From: an uncultured virus (IMG/VR IMGVR_UViG_3300020048_000074)
Lineage: Duplodnaviria > Heunggongvirae > Uroviricota > Caudoviricetes
DNA: 64,000 bases
IMG/VR virus record: IMGVR_UViG_3300020048_000074
Span: 1-64,000 of that record
Strand: one strand, 5' to 3'
The position numbers were made by a program, and so were the translations under genes. This document shows positions 1 to 11,143 of the stretch, piece by piece (position 1 is the stretch's first letter; every line of letters starts with the position of its first letter). Below the pieces are notes generated by a model that did not search any database, was not told the origin of the DNA, and saw only the letters and a program-made list of their open reading frames with translations.

Positions 1-55
1 CACGCCCTCGGGATGCTACAAGTTTTGTATTTTGGGGAGATAACGTGTTGGTAGG
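1..55 (-). repeat. 55-bp exact direct repeat of 3055-3109 (early promoter upstream and -35 part, cut by the window edge)
   Basis: cacgccctcgggatgctacaagttttgtattttggggagataacgtgttggtagg is identical at 1-55 and 3055-3109. Confidence 0.9.
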
Positions 56-81
56 TTGTTACTACACAACACGTCTATGGT

Positions 82-267
82 TTACCTCGAAACAGCCCAC
101 ACCGGATTGCCCTCGCTGTCACGCTCTTTAATCCGGTACGTCCAAATTCCAATCTGGGCCACTTTGTACTTAGTACCCATCGAGTCTTCAAGATCGGCCA
201 CCGCAGCTTTACGCTCGATGAGCTTTCCGGATCGGGTACGGACTTTGATCGTTTGCTGTTGAATCAT
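82..267 (-). CDS. small early hypothetical protein
   Basis: ORF 82..333; ATG at 267 follows GGAGGT SD; region upstream is a hairpin element. Confidence 0.65.
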   Translation of the reverse strand: MIQQQTIKVRTRSGKLIERKAAVADLEDSMGTKYKVAQIGIWTYRIKERDSEGNPVWAVSR

Positions 268-271
268 CGTT

Positions 272-332
272 ACCTCCATGGGATCGATATCCCGCAAGGG
301 ACTCTGTTTCCAAAGTCCCCCACGTGAGATCA
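272..332 (-). repeat. intergenic hairpin element copy 1
   Basis: TGA-long stem (gggacttt/agagtccc core)-small hairpin gggat/atccc-ATGGAGGT. Confidence 0.75.
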
Positions 333-641
333 AGCCTGCTGGCTCTCGTACAGCTTGACAAGCTTCTTGCTGGCTTCCTCCACCGGAGTAAACCCGCCGA
401 GCGTCAATCCGTATTCATCGAGCGACCAGTAAATCTCTTTACCGGCGATCGCGCTTTGATTCACGTCATGGGCGTCACCTATCACGCCACCGAAACATAA
501 ATCCAAAGCCCGAACAGTCGGAGCATTCTCGCATGGTACCAATTGCTCGATACCTGAAGCGTCCACCAAGATGAGAGCACCAAGCCCGCTTTGATACGTG
601 CCTCGAAACTCTTTGATCTTACCCTTGTTTATTTTTTCCAT
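330..641 (-). CDS. early hypothetical protein
   Basis: 103-aa ORF in tandem minus-strand array. Confidence 0.75.
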   Translation of the reverse strand: MEKINKGKIKEFRGTYQSGLGALILVDASGIEQLVPCENAPTVRALDLCFGGVIGDAHDVNQSAIAGKEIYWSLDEYGLTLGGFTPVEEASKKLVKLYESQQA

Positions 642-642
642 A

Positions 643-828
643 CTAAACCCCTTTCAATGCTTTCAGTGTTTCACCACCTCCGCATTCCTTGGTCCCTTTG
701 ACTTCGCAAGTCTCGCAAGCTGCAAGACCATTGAACTGCACAAGCCAACAATCACTTGTCAACTTGGATTGATCGATAACCTTCGTGTTGGTTATTTTTC
801 CATCACGACCCATCGTAGCGTACACCAT
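643..828 (-). CDS. small Cys-rich early protein
   Basis: 61 aa, C..CxxC..C, GGAGGT SD. Confidence 0.7.
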   Translation of the reverse strand: MVYATMGRDGKITNTKVIDQSKLTSDCWLVQFNGLAACETCEVKGTKECGGGETLKALKGV

Positions 829-829
829 A

Positions 830-893
830 AAACCTCCATCGGATTTACATCCGCGAAGGGCACCTCATTTGAAGTGCCTATCGTAGACGTTCA
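830..893 (-). repeat. intergenic hairpin element copy 2
   Basis: TGA-acgtct..ggcactt/aggtgcc..ggatgt; alternative hairpin cggat/atccg; ATGGAGGT. Confidence 0.75.
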
Positions 894-1325
894 GCTTGAG
901 GCGCGTTCAAAAACGCCTTCACCGTTACTGAATGTTCCAAGCCTTTTAAGAAGCCCGAATCCGTCTTCAACCAACTTAGCTCTAAGCTTCGTAAAGAAGT
1001 CCTCAGACCATTCGGTTGCAAACGCTTCCCAACATTCTTTCAAAGGTTCCCATGCATCATCATCCGCGTCTTCTTTCGGAACAATGGCAAGTGAGCAAAG
1101 TCCGCAATACTCGCTCAGCACTATTGATGCTATGCTGCATTTGCTTATTACCCTGCCCTCTCTCCCGATCCATTCATTATCCCCGGCAGCATCAAACCGA
1201 TTGTCAACCGATCCAATAACCGCGCATAGACTTGAAATGGTATCGTAAAAGAAATCCTCGTCATCGTCGTAACTGAAGTATAACACCGCAGCCGAATTGG
1301 AAGGTACATTTACGCTTCTACTCAT
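891..1325 (-). CDS. acidic early hypothetical protein
   Basis: 144-aa ORF, GGAGGT SD. Confidence 0.75.
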   Translation of the reverse strand: MSRSVNVPSNSAAVLYFSYDDDEDFFYDTISSLCAVIGSVDNRFDAAGDNEWIGREGRVISKCSIASIVLSEYCGLCSLAIVPKEDADDDAWEPLKECWEAFATEWSEDFFTKLRAKLVEDGFGLLKRLGTFSNGEGVFERASS

Positions 1326-1328
1326 ACT

Positions 1329-1394
1329 AAACCTCCACGGGGAAGTATCCCCCCTCTGCCCGCTCTTTCAAGTGGGCAGTAGGTGGCTACCTTA
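1329..1394 (-). repeat. intergenic hairpin element copy 3
   Basis: TAA-ggtagccacctactgccc..gggcagagggggatacttccccgtggaggt; close sequence homolog of copies 5 and 6. Confidence 0.85.
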
Positions 1395-1730
1395 TGATGC
1401 GGCAGAAAGCCGCAGCATCGCCTTGCGTATCTCATCTTTCGGTGGATACACATTTTCGGAAAGCGCCTTGAGATAAAGTTCATTGAACTTTTCGTTGGGC
1501 ACCCTGTCCGATCGATTACCCGGAAGCATGCCAAAATGCTTTCCAGTGGTCCTCGACCAAACATTCTCGCTGACTACATAACCGACCCCCGGTGCTCGAA
1601 ACGCGATAGGCGTTTGATACGAGAAATAAATGGTCATGTCACCAACCGTTATTTGCATCGTATGCGCACCGTAATTCTGGTTATCATAAGACCCGTAAGT
1701 CTTAACCTGTACATAATCACCGATGTTCAT
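1392..1730 (-). CDS. early hypothetical protein (FSYQTPIA..WSRTTGKH)
   Basis: ORF 1392..1742; ATG at 1730 after GGAGGT. Confidence 0.75.
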   Translation of the reverse strand: MNIGDYVQVKTYGSYDNQNYGAHTMQITVGDMTIYFSYQTPIAFRAPGVGYVVSENVWSRTTGKHFGMLPGNRSDRVPNEKFNELYLKALSENVYPPKDEIRKAMLRLSAAS

Positions 1731-1732
1731 AG

Positions 1733-1798
1733 AAACCTCCATTGGACTTTTCCGTCCATGGAGAGGGCCGGTTTCCCAGCCCCTACCATAGGCGCTCA
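1733..1798 (-). repeat. intergenic hairpin element copy 4
   Basis: TGA-cgcctatgg..ctgg-GAAA-ccgg..ccatggacg; alternative hairpin tggac/gtcca; ATGGAGGT. Confidence 0.75.
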
Positions 1799-2182
1799 GA
1801 TAAGCGGGATGTAGAGATTCGCATCCTTGGCAAACTGAGTGATTTTCGTGGCGGCATCGACCGCAGCTTTATTCCTGAGATCGTATGCCGCATCTTTATA
1901 GATGGACATGAACTCAATGAACGCCGCGATGGTTTGTGCTTGCAACGTCCGGTGGTCATGGGCCACCTTAATGAACATCGCCTGAGCTACCTCTTTTGGA
2001 TTACTGCCGTTCAAGGCATGCGACAAGGTTTCCATCGCTTCCCCGATGTGATCCCACCATTCCTTGTTGACGATCATCCTCTCGGCGTCAGCAAGCGTAG
2101 TTTCACCATTCGGCGTGAATGCGGCGTACCTGTCGATAGTCTCTTTGGCCTTTGCGCTTGCAAAGCTTTTGTTGTCTTCCAT
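1796..2182 (-). CDS. early hypothetical protein (helical)
   Basis: 128-aa ORF, GGAGGT SD. Confidence 0.75.
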   Translation of the reverse strand: MEDNKSFASAKAKETIDRYAAFTPNGETTLADAERMIVNKEWWDHIGEAMETLSHALNGSNPKEVAQAMFIKVAHDHRTLQAQTIAAFIEFMSIYKDAAYDLRNKAAVDAATKITQFAKDANLYIPLI

Positions 2183-2185
2183 ACA

Positions 2186-2250
2186 AACCTCCGTGGGAAA
2201 GTATTCCCCCTCCGGGCACTCCTTAAAATGCCCGGTAGGTGAATGCTTTA
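2186..2250 (-). repeat. intergenic hairpin element copy 5
   Basis: TAA-agcattcacctaccgggcatt..agtgcccggagggggaatactttcccacggaggt. Confidence 0.85.
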
Positions 2251-2619
2251 GCGGTGAGTAAAGACCCCGATCTTTACCTGAAACTGTCCAGCTTCGACAA
2301 TCGCGTAGCCGTACTTGCCGGAATCGTTTACGAGTTTCATAAACGCATCCACGGTAAGAGCCGGTTCCCTCGGGCTTCCGAATCCGGAAGAATCCACGAA
2401 GTACGCTCCGTAGCCAAGGTTGTCATCCTCGTAAACGCCCTGCATCGGCAGGCCCGCTTCCTTGATGTTTACCCGCTTCCAGCCCCGGGGACATCGTTCA
2501 CCGATGCTCGGGATTTTAAACTCTGCTTTCAGCTGAGGGATAAACGGCACGTCTCCGCGCTTTCTGCTGTCCTTAGCTGCCTGCTCGTTTAACTGCTTGA
2601 GTGCTTGTAAGCTGTACAT
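2248..2619 (-). CDS. early hypothetical protein
   Basis: ORF 2248..2631; ATG at 2619 after GGAGGT. Confidence 0.75.
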   Translation of the reverse strand: MYSLQALKQLNEQAAKDSRKRGDVPFIPQLKAEFKIPSIGERCPRGWKRVNIKEAGLPMQGVYEDDNLGYGAYFVDSSGFGSPREPALTVDAFMKLVNDSGKYGYAIVEAGQFQVKIGVFTHR

Positions 2620-2620
2620 A

Positions 2621-2687
2621 AAAACCTCCATGGGGAAGTGTCCCCCCTCTGCTCACTCTTTCAAATGAGCAGTAGGTGGATACCTTA
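2621..2687 (-). repeat. intergenic hairpin element copy 6
   Basis: TAA-ggtatccacctactgctcatt..agtgagcagaggggggacacttccccatggaggt. Confidence 0.85.
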
Positions 2688-2858
2688 ATCGACCGCAGTG
2701 TGAACCACCTGCTTACCGTTTAACTCGGCAAGCATCACGACCACCTCGTAGCTCTTCTTGGCCTTGAACTGCTTGGCAGCTTCAAGCTGCGCATGGTAGC
2801 TGGTATCGCTTTTTACTTCGATCCGCTTTCCACGATACATGCAAATATAACCGTTCAT
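2685..2858 (-). CDS. small early hypothetical protein (first gene of early operon)
   Basis: ATG at 2858 after GGAGGT. Confidence 0.7.
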   Translation of the reverse strand: MNGYICMYRGKRIEVKSDTSYHAQLEAAKQFKAKKSYEVVVMLAELNGKQVVHTAVD

Positions 2859-2877
2859 ACAAACCTCCAAATGCCTT

Positions 2878-2940
2878 TCTGGGTTTCGTCGTAATTCTCA
2901 ACGACTCAATCAGGGAACCTCTTTCGTGTTCCGACCCAAA
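2878..2940 (-). ncRNA. type III hammerhead ribozyme (one extra nt in core)
   Basis: UUUGGGUC / GGAAC-loop-GUUCC / CUGAUUGA / GUCGU-loop-ACGAC / GAAA / CCCAGA; three stems and GUC triplet present. Confidence 0.8.
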
Positions 2941-3047
2941 CCGTGTTACCGGTTTCTCTTTGGTCTGGTGTGGTGGACTACCGTTCCCGGCCTGCCTCAC
3001 TCTCGTCCCCACCGAGGCCGCGCTTTCTCTCGCTCCCCTACAACTTA

Positions 3048-3075
3048 ATTATACCACGCCCTCGGGATGCTACAA
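3048..3075 (-). promoter_or_regulatory. sigma70-type early promoter with extended -10
   Basis: TTGTAG-16 nt-TATAAT preceded by TG (TGgTATAAT); upstream part duplicated at 1-55. Confidence 0.8.
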
Positions 3076-3129
3076 GTTTTGTATTTTGGGGAGATAACGT
3101 GTTGGTAGGATGATTACTTTTGCGGGAAT

Positions 3130-3175
3130 AAAAAAATGCCGGTGCGGATGGAGGTAACCCATGATCGCACCGGCA
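3130..3175 (-). terminator. intrinsic terminator
   Basis: tgccggtgcg/cgcaccggca 10-bp stem followed by a T run on the minus strand. Confidence 0.75.
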
Positions 3176-3237
3176 AGCAGGCATGGCGCGAAGCGCACGC
3201 CCTTGAACTTAAAATATACAACAGCTTTGAAAGAATG

Positions 3238-3840
3238 TCAAACGTATACGATAAAATAATCCTTAACGTTTTGATCGTATTCCGCTTTCGACATGCGCCG
3301 GGCAAACCCTCCCTTGCCATCAGGGAATCGAGCACCCCACGAATCATGATATATGATTTCCTTGGTGTCTTCGTCGTAAGCAACCGCCGCGATGTAATGC
3401 CCGGGCTTAATAAGACAAAGCTGGACCGCCCTTCCTTCGACAAGCATGGTTACAATGGAATCGAAATTCTTGCCCCATTGGAATGCTGCCTTGGCGTTGA
3501 ATACCTCTTGCACCGCAACCGGATAATACTGAGGCACCCGGTTTTCTGGAATACTTTCATCCATAGCCCGGATAGCATTCAATTTTGTTTTATTGTTTGG
3601 ATCATTGAAATAATCCATCAATACCTCTTCAGACTGCGGGATAAAAACCCCGGGGCATTCAATGACGATATCGTACCCCAAAGCGTCAAGACAATTCACC
3701 GACGCCGATGGACCGCAAGATTCCAACCATCCTAGCTTGGTTTCCTTCAACGTAGCCTTTAGATACGCCTCGGTAGGATTATTCTCTTGGCTATGCAAGC
3801 GATCCCGATCATCCCAAAACTTTGCGCCTTTAATACCCAT
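3238..3840 (-). CDS. peptidase C39-like (papain-fold) protein, possible endolysin
   Basis: SCGP catalytic Cys, GHY His, YHDSWG Asp motif. Confidence 0.75.
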   Translation of the reverse strand: MGIKGAKFWDDRDRLHSQENNPTEAYLKATLKETKLGWLESCGPSASVNCLDALGYDIVIECPGVFIPQSEEVLMDYFNDPNNKTKLNAIRAMDESIPENRVPQYYPVAVQEVFNAKAAFQWGKNFDSIVTMLVEGRAVQLCLIKPGHYIAAVAYDEDTKEIIYHDSWGARFPDGKGGFARRMSKAEYDQNVKDYFIVYV

Positions 3841-3852
3841 GATGCTCTCCTT

Positions 3853-5877
3853 TTATTTCACGTACTGCCCACGTATTTTCGATTCGTGGTATCCCTGCCC
3901 TATGAGCACTTTCAATATGTCCTCTTCCGATTCAGTAACCGAACTTTTAACCAACGCTATATCAATATAACCTTGAGAAGTGTACATGAACGAAATAACA
4001 TCAGCCACCTTAACTACGTTCACCACAGGCTTAGGCGGGTTTATATTTACATGCTTATTGAACTGCTGGTTTAAAAATCCATCGGTGGTTACGTTCTGAA
4101 GACGCGCTATGTTTTCGCGCTCGGCATCGGATAGCCCCGGAGCCACTACATTCGCTTTATCGGCATACGAATCCATAGCTTTGGATTCCTGTTCAAAAAA
4201 GTCAAACAAACCATGGTCCGGCATAATCATCCCCGCTTGCATGCAATACGCTTCAGCTAAAAGAAAGTGATCCGGTCTACTTCCTTCTTTCCAAATAAAC
4301 CTTGATTTTTCCGGGCTGTCATCGTCGGCTTCAAGTATACGAGTTGACGCTTGCATGTGGGCGTAATACTCGCCGTCCTCTATCGTCTCTGCCTGCATCG
4401 GCAATATCATATTCTGAAGCTCGAACGCTTGACGCACATAATCAAGCATAGCGGTCCGGTCCATTCGCACTTCCCTTTTTTCTTTCAGCTTAACCAAAGA
4501 CGTGGCATCGCTTTGAAACCTGCTCGACCACACCATGGAAAACTCTTCCTTCAAATCCATTACCTTGTGGATTTCAGGCATGGCGTCAATTACGCAACAA
4601 GACGGCTTCCATTCACGCAACAACTCGGCCAGTTGATTAAACCCGGGAAGCGTCCACGCCCCGATCATCCGCAAAGACATCCCACCGTTTGGAGATCGCA
4701 CGCGCTCTCGAAGCACAGCATGCAAGTGTGATCCAACGTCAACGCCCATTATTCTAAGATGCTCATTACCTACCGTCTTAACCGGCCACTCATAAAGCCT
4801 TCGGCATGAGTCAAGCAAGCTTCGCGTTATTTTTGATCCTTTAGACGAGAAGGGTAATCCCAAATCAGAATTATAAAAAAGCTGCGTCTTTAAATCGTTG
4901 CCGACTGCTTTGGTCCACACCCGATACATTTCACGCAACGTGGTAAACTTGCTGAATACTTTTGAAACGCGGTAGCCTTTCCATTGTCTTCCAGAAAACT
5001 CGTGGACCCATTCACCCCATTGCAAACGATTCACAGGGCCGCCGCAATCATGGATCAAGTTTATTTCAACATTGGAAAGCGGATCGGTATCGGCAGAAAC
5101 ATCCCGAGGTATGAAACTGTTTGTCGAAGTCTCACGGACCACATGCTGCCAGAAATCAGGCACAAACCATTTATTGCAATGCGGGCATTTTATCTGCCAC
5201 TGCGCCCGACTGCTTTCAAGGTAGCGCTCATCGATTCCAAAACTCTCGGTGGTCGGGTTTCCAATCTCTCGCAGATATCTATACGGACTCGCGGTTAAGC
5301 GGTCCGGTATCATCAACAGGTTAGCTTGATTGCATCTATCCTTTTCATCCACGTAAGCAGAGTCTACCGGAATTTCAATAAACTCATCGGATACGTTTGA
5401 CCCCACATACGCCAACGTCCCCAAACCAAAATGCATTAAAGATGTTCGATGCACTTTTGTTTCTGCCTGCATTACAAACTTGCTGTATTGAGGTATCCGT
5501 TTATGCAGCTTGTATATGCGGTTATTTACAAACCGGTTTCTCAATTCGTATTTCGGCAAAATATACATTACCGTCAAACCCATCTCGCCTGCTTCGATAT
5601 GCGACATGATAATGAAAAGTTCCGAAAGTCCGCACTGCACACTTTTCTCCACTACCATGTTTGGATTGTCCACGATAGCCTTGTACAGCTCGACGAGGTA
5701 ATACAGGTCTTTGAACTGCATGCGCTGCAATCGGGTGTTCACGTGGTAGTTTCGCGCCCAGTACAAAGCGCGGCTACCCGACAACGAATCCTTTAGCCCC
5801 TGTTCCTTGGCAGCCTGCAAACGCTGAGAAGCGGTATACAGTTTGTTTAAGACTTCAGCGTCATTCAACCTCTGCAT
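3853..5877 (-). CDS. terL: terminase large subunit (lambda GpA-like)
   Basis: EKSVQCGLSE Walker A variant, YVDE Walker B, GNPT, CPHC Zn knuckle, GVDVG nuclease, C-terminal DH. Confidence 0.9.
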   Translation of the reverse strand: MQRLNDAEVLNKLYTASQRLQAAKEQGLKDSLSGSRALYWARNYHVNTRLQRMQFKDLYYLVELYKAIVDNPNMVVEKSVQCGLSELFIIMSHIEAGEMGLTVMYILPKYELRNRFVNNRIYKLHKRIPQYSKFVMQAETKVHRTSLMHFGLGTLAYVGSNVSDEFIEIPVDSAYVDEKDRCNQANLLMIPDRLTASPYRYLREIGNPTTESFGIDERYLESSRAQWQIKCPHCNKWFVPDFWQHVVRETSTNSFIPRDVSADTDPLSNVEINLIHDCGGPVNRLQWGEWVHEFSGRQWKGYRVSKVFSKFTTLREMYRVWTKAVGNDLKTQLFYNSDLGLPFSSKGSKITRSLLDSCRRLYEWPVKTVGNEHLRIMGVDVGSHLHAVLRERVRSPNGGMSLRMIGAWTLPGFNQLAELLREWKPSCCVIDAMPEIHKVMDLKEEFSMVWSSRFQSDATSLVKLKEKREVRMDRTAMLDYVRQAFELQNMILPMQAETIEDGEYYAHMQASTRILEADDDSPEKSRFIWKEGSRPDHFLLAEAYCMQAGMIMPDHGLFDFFEQESKAMDSYADKANVVAPGLSDAERENIARLQNVTTDGFLNQQFNKHVNINPPKPVVNVVKVADVISFMYTSQGYIDIALVKSSVTESEEDILKVLIGQGYHESKIRGQYVK

Positions 5878-8649: not shown

Positions 8650-11143
8650 GCTTCAAGCCTACTGAATCGAATATGTCTTGCAGCCGGGATTCATTTTTTT
8701 GACCCCAGCGCTGATTCACTTCTACATCCACCTTCATGATAACCGGCATGGCTTTCACAGGTGACTCAAAAGCAACTTGTATTGTATCACGCATTGCTTC
8801 AACTTCATACTCTGGATCGTCTACGATAACACAGTCATGGACCGTATGCACTATTTTTCCCTGTAGCCTTTGAACCTGTATAGCCTGCCTGAGTCTAATC
8901 AGTCCGATGTAGGTGTAATCAGCGGCCCCGGATTGTATAGGGCTATTCATCGCCTGTCGTTCAGCCTTCCCGATGTCGCCCCATTGGTCGGATAATCCAA
9001 GAGGCAGCCTTCGCTTTCTTCCAAAGACAGAAACCACGTACCCGTTTTTCCGTACCAATGCTTTCTGCTTTTCCATCCATCGCGCCACGTTCGGCAAGCG
9101 CTCAAAGTACAGCCCCATGAACTCGGTAGCCGCTTCGATGGTTATACCTAAAGACTTTGCCAAGCCCATTTCGCTCATCCCATAAACAAGTCCAAAATTG
9201 ATAGCCTTGGCCATCCTTCGTTCCAGTTTAGTACATACATAAGTAGGTGGCAAGTTATAAATCCTACGGAACGTTTCTGAATGGATATCCAAACCCTCAG
9301 CAAAAGCTTTCAAGAAAGTTTGCTCACCACTTATCGCCGCGATGGTAGCCATCTCAGCACTCTTCAAATCTGCCTCTACAAGCAGGTTGCCTATACTTGA
9401 AATGTAAAGAGAACGTACCAACCTATCGGCAGGCACATTCTGAAGGGATGGCTGCGATGCGCTGCACCTTCCAGTCACCGCGCCGGTAAGATTGTAGTGA
9501 GTATGCGCCCTCCCATCTTCAGGCCATGTAAAATCTATAGCCTGCCCGATATGGGTACCGAGCATTGTGCTCGTATACGCTCGATCCAAAAGGAACTTGG
9601 CAATCTCGCTGTCAGGCTGCGTAGCGATAAACTCTATGCTATCACTATCGGCACTGTACCCTCCCTTTGTTTCTTTCAGAGGCGCAAACTTCATTTCCTT
9701 ATACAAAACTTTTTGAAGTTGAATCGGGCTGTCGATGTTAAACTCTCTGCCCGCGCATCGATATATTTCCCGTTCTAGTTTCACGATTGTCTCTTTGCAT
9801 GCTTCACCTATTTTTACAGCCAGTTCCGTATCAACGCGTATCCCGTTTATTTCAGCGTCACTCATAACCCGGCGAACTGGCATGGCTATCTTTTCAAATA
9901 CCGACTCTACTTTTTCAATAGCCATAATCGGTTTAGTGGTTACATATATAATCCACGTGGCAATAGCATCATAAGAACCGTAAGGTGCCAGAAGCTCAAC
10001 AGGTATTTTAGAATAGTCCTCTTTTATCTTGTTCTCTTTTTTGTACTTTTCTAATGGAGTATCATACCCACCAAACTTGGTGTGCAGCCAAGCCAAATCC
10101 TTTAAGCGTTTAGAAAAGTTCTCATCTATAAGGTGGCAGCCTATCATAGTATCAAAATACTTGACGCCATTCACCTTGATCCCGTATACCATAGTCAAGA
10201 TGCGGACCTCGTAAGCTCCGTTATGCATTATCTTGTAATACTCTTTTCCGGATATAAGCTCAACAAATAAATTGTATATGTCTCTACGCGAGTTTAAAAC
10301 TTCCCAGCTAAAATAGTATCCCAAATCAGGCTGGTTACTAAACGAGCAACCTATCACCCACTTATCGATAGTTCGACCTTTACCCCCGGTTTCAATATCA
10401 AAAGCAAACGCCTTAGACTCTTGAAAACGTTTCAAGACGGCTAAGGCTATTCTGGGTTCAGTGACATACACCGATTTCGGCATAGGTGCATCAGGCAACT
10501 CAAGCTTACTCGTGGCCCATGCCTTTTTGAGATCAGCGACAATCAACCCGGATGTATAACTGGAATACCCGCGTTTCGTAACACAAGCGGTAGGGTGCAG
10601 CGTAGGCATCAGCCAGCACCCAAACTCCTGAAGCCAAACCATCTTGCCTTGCCAGCGGCCAATCCCGCTTACCTTACTGTCCTGCTTTTTCGCAGTGCCC
10701 TCTTCGGCACCGCCCTTATAAAAAGATTGCAGCATGGACGCAAGTGGAACGTTACCCATGGCTACGATTACTTTTGGCTTAACCATTTTTATTTCAGCTT
10801 CAAGGTATCGCCTGCATCGCATTATTTCGCTTACCGTTGGTACCTTGTCTTTAAGTGTATGACAACGAACCGCGTGACTAAACCGTATTTTGGATTCTGG
10901 TATTTTGGCGTCAACGAGTAATCGATCTCTAAGGTATTCACCGATAGCATCCATGAAGGGACGGTTCATGGAGTCATCGAACGCGCTTGGGTTTTCCCCC
11001 AGTATCATAACGTCAGCGTTGGACGGTCCTTCCCCTTCCATGCAAACAGATGAGGAATTCGCACAATGCTTGGCACAAAGTTGACAGGTAGGCCAGTAGC
11101 CTACTCCGTCTGGGATAACTTGCTTGTCAACTCTTCCAGCCAT
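8639..11143 (-). CDS. polA: family A DNA polymerase with N-terminal family-4 UDG-like domain and 3'-5' exonuclease
   Basis: CxxC..GEGP..GENP..PF UDG motifs; FDIET exonuclease; ADLKSAE, RRMAKAINFGLVYG, TVHD polymerase motifs. Confidence 0.95.
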   Translation of the reverse strand: MAGRVDKQVIPDGVGYWPTCQLCAKHCANSSSVCMEGEGPSNADVMILGENPSAFDDSMNRPFMDAIGEYLRDRLLVDAKIPESKIRFSHAVRCHTLKDKVPTVSEIMRCRRYLEAEIKMVKPKVIVAMGNVPLASMLQSFYKGGAEEGTAKKQDSKVSGIGRWQGKMVWLQEFGCWLMPTLHPTACVTKRGYSSYTSGLIVADLKKAWATSKLELPDAPMPKSVYVTEPRIALAVLKRFQESKAFAFDIETGGKGRTIDKWVIGCSFSNQPDLGYYFSWEVLNSRRDIYNLFVELISGKEYYKIMHNGAYEVRILTMVYGIKVNGVKYFDTMIGCHLIDENFSKRLKDLAWLHTKFGGYDTPLEKYKKENKIKEDYSKIPVELLAPYGSYDAIATWIIYVTTKPIMAIEKVESVFEKIAMPVRRVMSDAEINGIRVDTELAVKIGEACKETIVKLEREIYRCAGREFNIDSPIQLQKVLYKEMKFAPLKETKGGYSADSDSIEFIATQPDSEIAKFLLDRAYTSTMLGTHIGQAIDFTWPEDGRAHTHYNLTGAVTGRCSASQPSLQNVPADRLVRSLYISSIGNLLVEADLKSAEMATIAAISGEQTFLKAFAEGLDIHSETFRRIYNLPPTYVCTKLERRMAKAINFGLVYGMSEMGLAKSLGITIEAATEFMGLYFERLPNVARWMEKQKALVRKNGYVVSVFGRKRRLPLGLSDQWGDIGKAERQAMNSPIQSGAADYTYIGLIRLRQAIQVQRLQGKIVHTVHDCVIVDDPEYEVEAMRDTIQVAFESPVKAMPVIMKVDVEVNQRWGQKNESRLQDIFDSVGLKLAV

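Follow-up and report, generated by a model that had tools for sequence, protein, structure and literature searches.

A type III hammerhead motif with an eight-nucleotide core strand, probably self-cleaving, in the leader of a small-gene operon of an uncultured phage

Introduction

Hammerhead cleavage leaves 2',3'-cyclic phosphate and 5'-OH ends, and in RiboJ, a synthetic insulator derived from a satellite-RNA hammerhead, it removes the upstream leader, so that the mRNA then starts with a hairpin and a 5'-OH before the ribosome-binding site. The subject of this work resembles RiboJ in being a hammerhead element located in a 5' untranslated region (UTR) ahead of a ribosome-binding site, but it is natural and its cleavage is predicted. 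It lies on the minus strand, at positions 2940-2878, of a stretch of 64,000 nucleotides (nt) from an uncultured virus of the Caudoviricetes (Duplodnaviria; Heunggongvirae; Uroviricota), which corresponds to positions 1 to 64,000 of the 91,440-bp IMG/VR record IMGVR_UViG_3300020048_000074, and which we refer to as the window.

The closest described systems come from phage and environmental DNA. A natural hammerhead insertion after A6, called 'A6a', has been published with examples from marine metagenomes and a low activity (Perreault 2011, PMC3088659). A6a and the window element have in common one extra nt between A6 and G8, an otherwise complete structure and an origin in environmental or phage-like DNA, whereas the extra nt is an A in the published and IMG/VR examples (CUGAAUGA) and a U in the window (CUGAUUGA). 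The same paper describes HHphage, located 13 nt before the first early open reading frame (ORF) of the haloviruses HF1 and HF2, where the mapped 5' end of the transcript is at most 3 nt from the cleavage site. Like the window element, HHphage is a core-variant hammerhead in a phage polycistronic leader, 13 nt (HF1/HF2) versus 10-20 nt (window) ahead of the first ORF, but it differs by a 2-nt insertion next to C3 and stem I, by its halophilic archaeal host and by salt-dependent cutting; in addition, its 5' end was mapped experimentally, whereas the window element is known from sequence alone. A third comparison is provided by the clustered canonical hammerheads that flank single genes of phages and prophages (PMC3088659; families RF02276, RF00163 and RF00008), which, like the window element, are placed immediately before the Shine-Dalgarno site and start codon of a small phage gene. 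In contrast to these arrays between genes, the window element is present in a single copy, behind a promoter, and is of type III with a non-consensus core.

The original prediction for this locus had implied a novelty that is reduced by these precedents, since both the type of insertion and a variant hammerhead in a phage early-operon leader (HHphage) are already present in PMC3088659. The window element is thus a rare core variation of a known type in a known type of place. In a full-text literature search the strings CUGAAUGA and CUGAUUGA were found in no paper, the term A6a returned nothing relevant beyond Perreault 2011, and the combination of a hammerhead with an anti-Shine-Dalgarno architecture in phages returned nothing relevant.

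Results and discussion

A complete type III hammerhead motif with one additional core base

Direct reading of the minus strand at 2940-2878 gives UUUGGGUC/GGAAC-ACGAAAGAG-GUUCC-CUGAUUGA-GUCGU-UGAGAAUU-ACGAC-GAAA-CCCAGA (63 nt, with the slash at the predicted cut), which agrees letter for letter with the transcription of the original prediction. The topology is that of type III, with stems I and II each closed by a loop and stem III open, the stems having 5, 5 and 7 bp, respectively. The seven consensus core bases are all present and in order, and the element differs from the consensus solely in how long this strand is, namely 8 nt instead of the 7 nt of CUGANGA, the extra U being either 2909 or 2908. 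The cleavage-site base is a C (GUC), that is, a non-G base at position 17. For loop 2, one possible reading is an AGAA tetraloop on a stem II lengthened by U-U and G-U pairs, a form compatible with the motif RNnA that Dufour et al. 2009 described (PMC2632901).

In a permissive scan, the Rfam model Hammerhead_3 (RF00008) aligned to the element over model positions 1-54 of 54 with 39.4 bits, requiring one inserted U in the core and additional loop bases. The corresponding E-values are 3.8e-7 (501 nt versus 4227 families), 2.5e-6 (3.3 kb) and 1.7e-8 (this single family versus the whole record). The score is short of the RF00008 gathering score of 48.5 bits, and the default Rfam scan of the 64-kb window returned no entry. 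The original prediction of a type III hammerhead with three stems, a GUC site and an extra U between A6 and G8, for which a comparison with the Rfam covariance models had been proposed as a check, is therefore supported by a full-length match, though one under the gathering score, and also by the kin of the element among phage hammerheads (see below). This match is the only hammerhead match in the record, which is 95% complete by CheckV; no type II hammerhead was found in the genome scan, positions 1-3300 of the window contain no further Rfam match at E<=1, and no match beyond the cut-off was obtained in 14 control genomes.

Five type III hammerheads with an 8-nt core retrieved from IMG/VR score between 28.4 and 41.7 bits, all under 48.5, so that six out of six scored examples of this class, including that of the window, are under the gathering score. 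A sub-threshold score is thus typical of the 8-nt-core class and not a mark against the window element, and the Rfam threshold misses the whole class. Two canonical type I phage hammerheads (IMG/VR loci L109 and L127) score 25.8 and 20.9 bits, versus a gathering score of 34 for the Rfam type I model.

Eight-nucleotide cores and stem-loop II in phage hammerheads

In order to place the element among other viral hammerheads, IMG/VR was scanned for the pattern CTGANNGAGTC..GACGAAAC, which yielded 63 loci, and the matches were filtered for the presence of stems I and III and of a non-G cleavage-site base after U16.1. Thirteen of the 15 matches with NN=AU pass this filter; these represent 9 different sequences, and both type I and type III occur among them. 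Among the matches with any other NN only two out of 48 pass, one being CUGAAAGA and the other a weak case (L097); setting the latter aside, complete 8-nt-core hammerheads account for 14 of the 63 matches. Canonical cores are much commoner, as the canonical pattern occurs in at least 126 stretches of IMG/VR, and in the 80 loci examined 76 of 83 matches listed pass the same filter.

For all five type III 8-nt-core hammerheads, a Shine-Dalgarno site plus start codon is present no more than about 60 nt downstream, and for the canonical hammerheads the two are found within 110 nt in 37 of 76 cases (among the matches listed), by a simple pattern search without chance control. This recurrence of 8-nt cores in complete hammerheads before genes suggests that such a core is tolerated. 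The stem-loop II of the window element has the form GUC-NN-UG[AG][AG]AAUU-NN-GAC, which is the commonest one in the canonical set, among the matches listed, with NN pairs that covary. The canonical type I phage hammerheads at IMG/VR loci L109-L183 very often share the stem-loop II GUC-NN-UGAAAAUU-NN-GAC.

These comparisons bear on the simplest alternative, a chance likeness in an ordinary hairpin-rich leader, which would agree with the score below the Rfam gathering threshold and with the empty default scan. Against it stand the E-value of 1.7e-8 per genome and the lack of any match past the cut-off in the 14 control genomes, the selectivity of the stem I/III filter, which lets through just 2 of 48 pattern matches other than AU, and the stem-loop II, which is common to the main set of phage hammerheads. 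Chance resemblance is excluded for practical purposes, and we consider this explanation extremely improbable; the element very probably belongs to the hammerhead ribozyme family.

The element in closely related phages

The window was also compared with contigs of four DNA runs; no RNA runs matching window positions 2300-3900 were listed. A 163-nt X2 contig aligns to positions 2875-2939 only, over 65 nt with 9 substitutions and 0 gaps. Downstream of the aligned part this contig has a similar Shine-Dalgarno site followed by a different first gene, and upstream it has a leader in which another hairpin replaces the one next to the hammerhead, so that the flanks do not align. In an X1 contig this upstream flank is joined to the promoter and the leader, with 8 substitutions and 5 gapped letters over 2987-3109, and a second X1 contig represents the same variant over 2875-2908 (3 substitutions). 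A related phage (X1/X2) thus keeps the hammerhead at the same place and with the same length, so that the extra base cannot stem from an error of the assembly. A 30-nt flank of the X1/X2 relative gave no match in IMG/VR, and a 16-nt leader pattern common to both phages was found at 16 IMG/VR loci that share nothing else.

A third relative, represented by an X3 contig from a different study, spans positions 2650-2900. Its 20 listed substitutions are all located at 2723-2852, inside the gene, and none is listed at 2853-2892, which includes the Shine-Dalgarno site, the 3' strand of stem III, the GAAA and the 3' strand of stem II; one G is inserted at 2870.

More distant phage contigs, at 51-76% TerL identity, were obtained by TerL searches. 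One of these, L008 (TerL 51%), has two canonical type II hammerheads, at 8671-8736 and 8962-9027 (39.5 and 50.2 bits, with a gathering score of 37), which flank a 65-aa ORF about 1.7-2 kb downstream of terL, indicating that hammerheads are at home in the lineage of the window phage. Both L008 hammerheads follow a stop codon and precede the next ribosome-binding site.

Folding and proposed order of events

When the 63-mer is folded in isolation, its computed structure of minimum energy (-18.2 kcal/mol) is that of the hammerhead, and stem III by itself, as a duplex, has about -8.4 kcal/mol. In the full leader, where a hairpin at 2955-2938 adjoins stem III, forcing the hammerhead fold costs 3.1 kcal/mol relative to the minimum. 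The computed fold of a transcript ending at 2878 already has the hammerhead junction, from which co-transcriptional folding is expected to favour the hammerhead.

We favour, with moderate confidence, the reading that the element is a genuine type III hammerhead that probably cuts itself and sets the 5' end of the operon mRNA; the motif, its significance, its placement and its relationship to other phage hammerheads are shown here, and we infer the cleavage, its rate and its consequence. Self-cleavage to a meaningful extent in vivo likewise seems somewhat probable to us. In this scheme the RNA would fold during transcription, with the hammerhead complete before the Shine-Dalgarno site emerges, and would cleave after C2933, at a rate probably below that of a consensus hammerhead. 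A leader of ~110 nt would be released with a 2',3'-cyclic phosphate at C2933, and the operon mRNA would begin right at the stem I hairpin with a 5'-OH, 64 nt ahead of the ribosome-binding site; the original prediction had likewise proposed cutting, release of such a leader and a possibly stabilising 5'-OH. We would expect a defined, leader-independent and probably more stable 5' end, the same job that has been proposed for other phage hammerheads located before genes. A 5'-terminal hairpin or a missing 5' monophosphate slows RNase E-type decay in many bacteria, whereas products with a 5'-OH, for example that of glmS, are degraded by RNase J1 in the Firmicutes, and given this opposite behaviour the direction of the 5'-OH effect would depend on the host.

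Evidence against cleavage and the possibility of a relic

Several observations weigh against a self-cleaving ribozyme. The extra base stands at the position where the A6-N7 phosphate contacts U4, where it is expected to be harmful, and the low activity of A6a is ascribed in PMC3088659 to the disturbance of this very contact. The extra base is an A (CUGAAUGA) in 13 of the 14 structured 8-nt cores and the remaining one is CUGAAAGA, with UU in none, and the three other IMG/VR matches to CUGAUUGA, which have identical stem II ends, show no hammerhead stems around the core and do not pass the filter. The sequence of loop I, ACGAAAGAG, departs from the loop-1 motif UNmYN, which Dufour et al. 2009 (PMC2632901) connect with activity when Mg2+ is low. 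At equilibrium, the exact hammerhead fold makes up ~0.5% of the ensemble of the full leader. The hammerhead of the X1/X2 relative, at 86% identity, does not surpass the 5' part of the leader (about 89%) in conservation, and the 9 substitutions of the X2 hammerhead were obtained as a count; as for the X3 relative, 4 of its 24 differences are unlisted, which may fall in 2853-2900 and are probably at the contig end.

The more distant relatives point in the same direction. The hammerhead is absent, at E<=1 to 5, from seven out of seven loci that extend from the 200-aa gene p200 to the leader (L002, L003, L023-L026 and L105; TerL 55-76%), no type III match was found in 4 whole records of more distant relatives, and 7 viral contigs with a homologue of the 57-aa protein encoded by the first operon gene have no adjacent hammerhead at E<=5. 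Conservation in related phages, the lack of which the original prediction had named as a refutation, thus gives a mixed picture, with the element present at unchanged length in the closer X1/X2 relative (65 nt, 0 gaps) and absent from these seven. One of the three loci with a further CUGAUUGA match holds an overlapping canonical hammerhead-like match. A query with the p200 protein returned no IMG/VR loci, and p200 homologues were found by tblastn in the loci fetched with TerL.

The same observations can be accounted for by a relic that descends from a hammerhead, or by a leader structure without catalysis, crippled by the extra U, which would either shape the 5' UTR as a stable three-way junction, for instance through protection or spacing, or be decaying. 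Such a relic would explain an insertion at a position reported as damaging (PMC3088659), a U-U core that no other structured hammerhead among the 63 IMG/VR matches has, a loop I without the common tertiary-contact motif, and the absence of the element from relatives at TerL <=76%, which have a different structured leader at that place. However, decay would be expected to add lesions, and all other core bases and the three stems are intact, while the diverged relative keeps the same length. Furthermore, 8-nt cores recur in complete pre-gene hammerheads, and the published A6a variant still cleaves. We regard a relic as possible but rather unlikely, and retain self-cleavage as the preferred reading.

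Natural hammerheads with an additional base between A6 and G8 are few, and the window element is a well-placed new example. The default Rfam thresholds miss type III 8-nt cores, which recur in viral contigs directly before translation starts. If the U-U core cleaves, the tolerance of the core at that position would be wider, and the locus would offer a simple natural system of promoter, leader, ribozyme and ribosome-binding site for studying the effects of phage hammerheads on mRNA fate. If it does not cleave, the element would be a dated snapshot of ribozyme decay. Neither outcome would overturn current understanding.

Leaders of the relatives and access to the Shine-Dalgarno site

The leaders of several relatives have an ACCUCC(UCC) anti-Shine-Dalgarno stretch, one or two hairpins, the block UUUGGAGGUUUG and a start codon, and this block, at the Shine-Dalgarno region, is common to the window, L002 and L023. 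In L023, L002, L026 and L105 the ACCUCC-type anti-Shine-Dalgarno is placed 34-71 nt upstream, and only 11-26 of 300 shuffles are as good; in the window, even the strongest upstream pairing partner of the Shine-Dalgarno site does not stand out from shuffled sequences (z -0.2; 130/300 do as well). In the relatives, these leaders may serve to regulate translation of the first operon gene, in the slot that is held by the hammerhead in the window. They are located at 6880-6973 in L023, 4190-4280 in L002, 1810-1873 in L026 and 7280-7335 in L105, and correspond to no Rfam family; the linkers AUGGAAC and ACGGACUUU are conserved in the L023 and L002 leaders.

Another alternative is a cleavage-coupled translational switch, in which the hammerhead would lie within a mask of the ribosome-binding site or compete with it, and self-cleavage would set the translation of the first gene, in one of two versions. 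The cut could separate an anti-Shine-Dalgarno strand, CAGACC (2967-2962), from the site, or it could free the 3' strand of stem III, AAACCCAGA, to pair with UUUGGAGGUUU. A long-range helix of 2967-2962 with 2865-2860, enclosing the hammerhead, is indeed predicted, and the X1/X2 relative changes the outer pair of this helix on both sides, from C-G to U-A, but this covariation amounts to one pair in two sequences. The anti-Shine-Dalgarno stretches of L023, L002, L026 and L105, which beat all but 11-26 of 300 shuffles, would also fit a switch, as would the minimum-energy fold of the 3' product, in which AAACC/CAGA pairs with the Shine-Dalgarno region. We consider a switch of either version very unlikely.

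Two specific candidates of this kind were tried and rejected. Unmasking of the Shine-Dalgarno site driven by cleavage was discarded as the opening cost of the Shine-Dalgarno/start region is the same in three states, namely 5.3 kcal/mol in the precursor, 5.0 kcal/mol in the hammerhead-folded precursor and 5.4 kcal/mol in the 3' product. An anti-Shine-Dalgarno mask in the window was discarded as indistinguishable from the shuffles mentioned above.

A further, doubtful interpretation is that the leader is a slot for interchangeable RNA modules, occupied by an anti-Shine-Dalgarno three-way structure in most relatives and by a hammerhead here and in one close relative. The 8-nt core would then stand for a ribozyme subclass, slow by design or dependent on conditions, that serves to time or gate expression of the first gene, and not for a damaged copy.

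Organization of the locus

The element is placed between the promoter and the first Shine-Dalgarno site of an operon of small genes, where the original prediction had put it (Table 1). Upstream, on the minus strand, are terL (3853-5877; PHROG 675, E 4.8e-70) and, after it, the p200 gene (3238-3840), with a weak match to Peptidase_C39_2. The terL-p200 transcript is ended by an intrinsic terminator, whose hairpin and U-run were also matched in the Rfam scan as a terminator-like sRNA (Esr41), and the same arrangement is found in L002, L023, L026 and L105. The terminator loop, GGGUUACCUCC (3160-3150, minus strand), resembles an anti-Shine-Dalgarno or the 3' end of 16S rRNA, and similar loops are present in the same four relatives. 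A strong sigma-70-like site at 3213-3241 (minus strand), with TTGACA, a 17-nt spacer and TATATT, matching 11 of 12 positions, is located just where the p200 gene ends and upstream of the terminator.

Table 1. Features of the hammerhead element and of the surrounding locus; positions are those of the window
Feature	Position	Strand	Basis or remark
Type III hammerhead motif with 8-nt core strand	2878..2940	-	RF00008, 39.4 bits, full length; minimum free energy fold of the 63-mer
Stem III, 7 bp (one of them U-G)	2940-2934 with 2884-2878	-	Sequence and model alignment
Stem I, 5 bp	2932-2928 with 2918-2914	-	Sequence and model alignment
Stem II, 5 bp	2905-2901 with 2892-2888	-	Sequence and model alignment
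C17 of GUC triplet	2933	-	Predicted cut between 2933 and 2932 (model alignment)
G12-A13-A14	2887-2885	-	Model alignment
A15.1-U16.1 pair	2884 with 2934	-	Sequence and model alignment
G10.1-C11.1 pair	2905 with 2888	-	Sequence and model alignment
Core strand CUGAUUGA = C3 U4 G5 A6 U U G8 A9	2906..2913	-	Alignment with a single inserted u
Stem-loop II, GUCGU-UGAGAAUU-ACGAC	2888..2905	-	Form GUC-NN-UG[AG][AG]AAUU-NN-GAC
Intrinsic terminator ending the terL-p200 transcript	3130..3175	-	10-bp stem, 3175-3166 with 3146-3137; T-run 3136-3130
Promoter of the small-gene operon	3048..3100	-	Upstream element ACGTTATCTCC... (3100-3081), -35 TTGTAG (3075-3070), extended -10 TGgTATAAT (3056-3048)
Predicted 5' cleavage fragment, about 110 nt (109-113)	2933..3044	-	5' end inferred from the -10 box
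Shine-Dalgarno GGAGG	2868-2864	-	10 nt past the 3' end of the hammerhead; AUG 2858-2856
First operon gene, 57-aa protein	2685..2858	-	No PHROG, no Pfam family

The -10 box of the operon promoter, TATAAT at 3053-3048, is preceded by TG. This promoter was not called by a consensus promoter scan, which is explained by its -35 box matching 3 of 6 positions. We hold it to be real since it is conserved at the same place in L002, L003, L023, L026 and L105 and has a second copy in the window. From the -10 box, transcription would start near 3041-3045, giving a leader of ~185 nt from this putative start to GGAGG. The upstream element at 3081-3100 (minus strand) is repeated exactly at window positions 27-46, the repeat running through the -35 box. 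The record starts within this second promoter copy, so that the assembly probably broke at the repeat, and the X1 contigs branch there too.

After the gene for the 57-aa protein there are five further small genes with no assigned function, up to the end of the record, and the label 'early operon' is plausible. The leader gave no blastn match to cultured phages, and TerL has at most about 23% identity to those of cultured phages. The promoter, the terminator and the Shine-Dalgarno site are all of bacterial type, and the phage is present in freshwater or sediment habitats. One of the relatives, L105, is a 67-kb contig of a metagenome-assembled genome (MAG) labelled as a Thermoplasmatales archaeon and has the block of terL, p200, terminator, promoter and leader. 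It has the appearance of phage DNA that was binned with an archaeal MAG, as its promoter and Shine-Dalgarno site are bacterial-type, and in view of these signals the archaeal label was not used to name a host. The window contains no tRNA, and in the relative L026 a tRNA-like match is present at 726-800, directly after terL (tRNA-Sec model, 30 bits, E 0.021).

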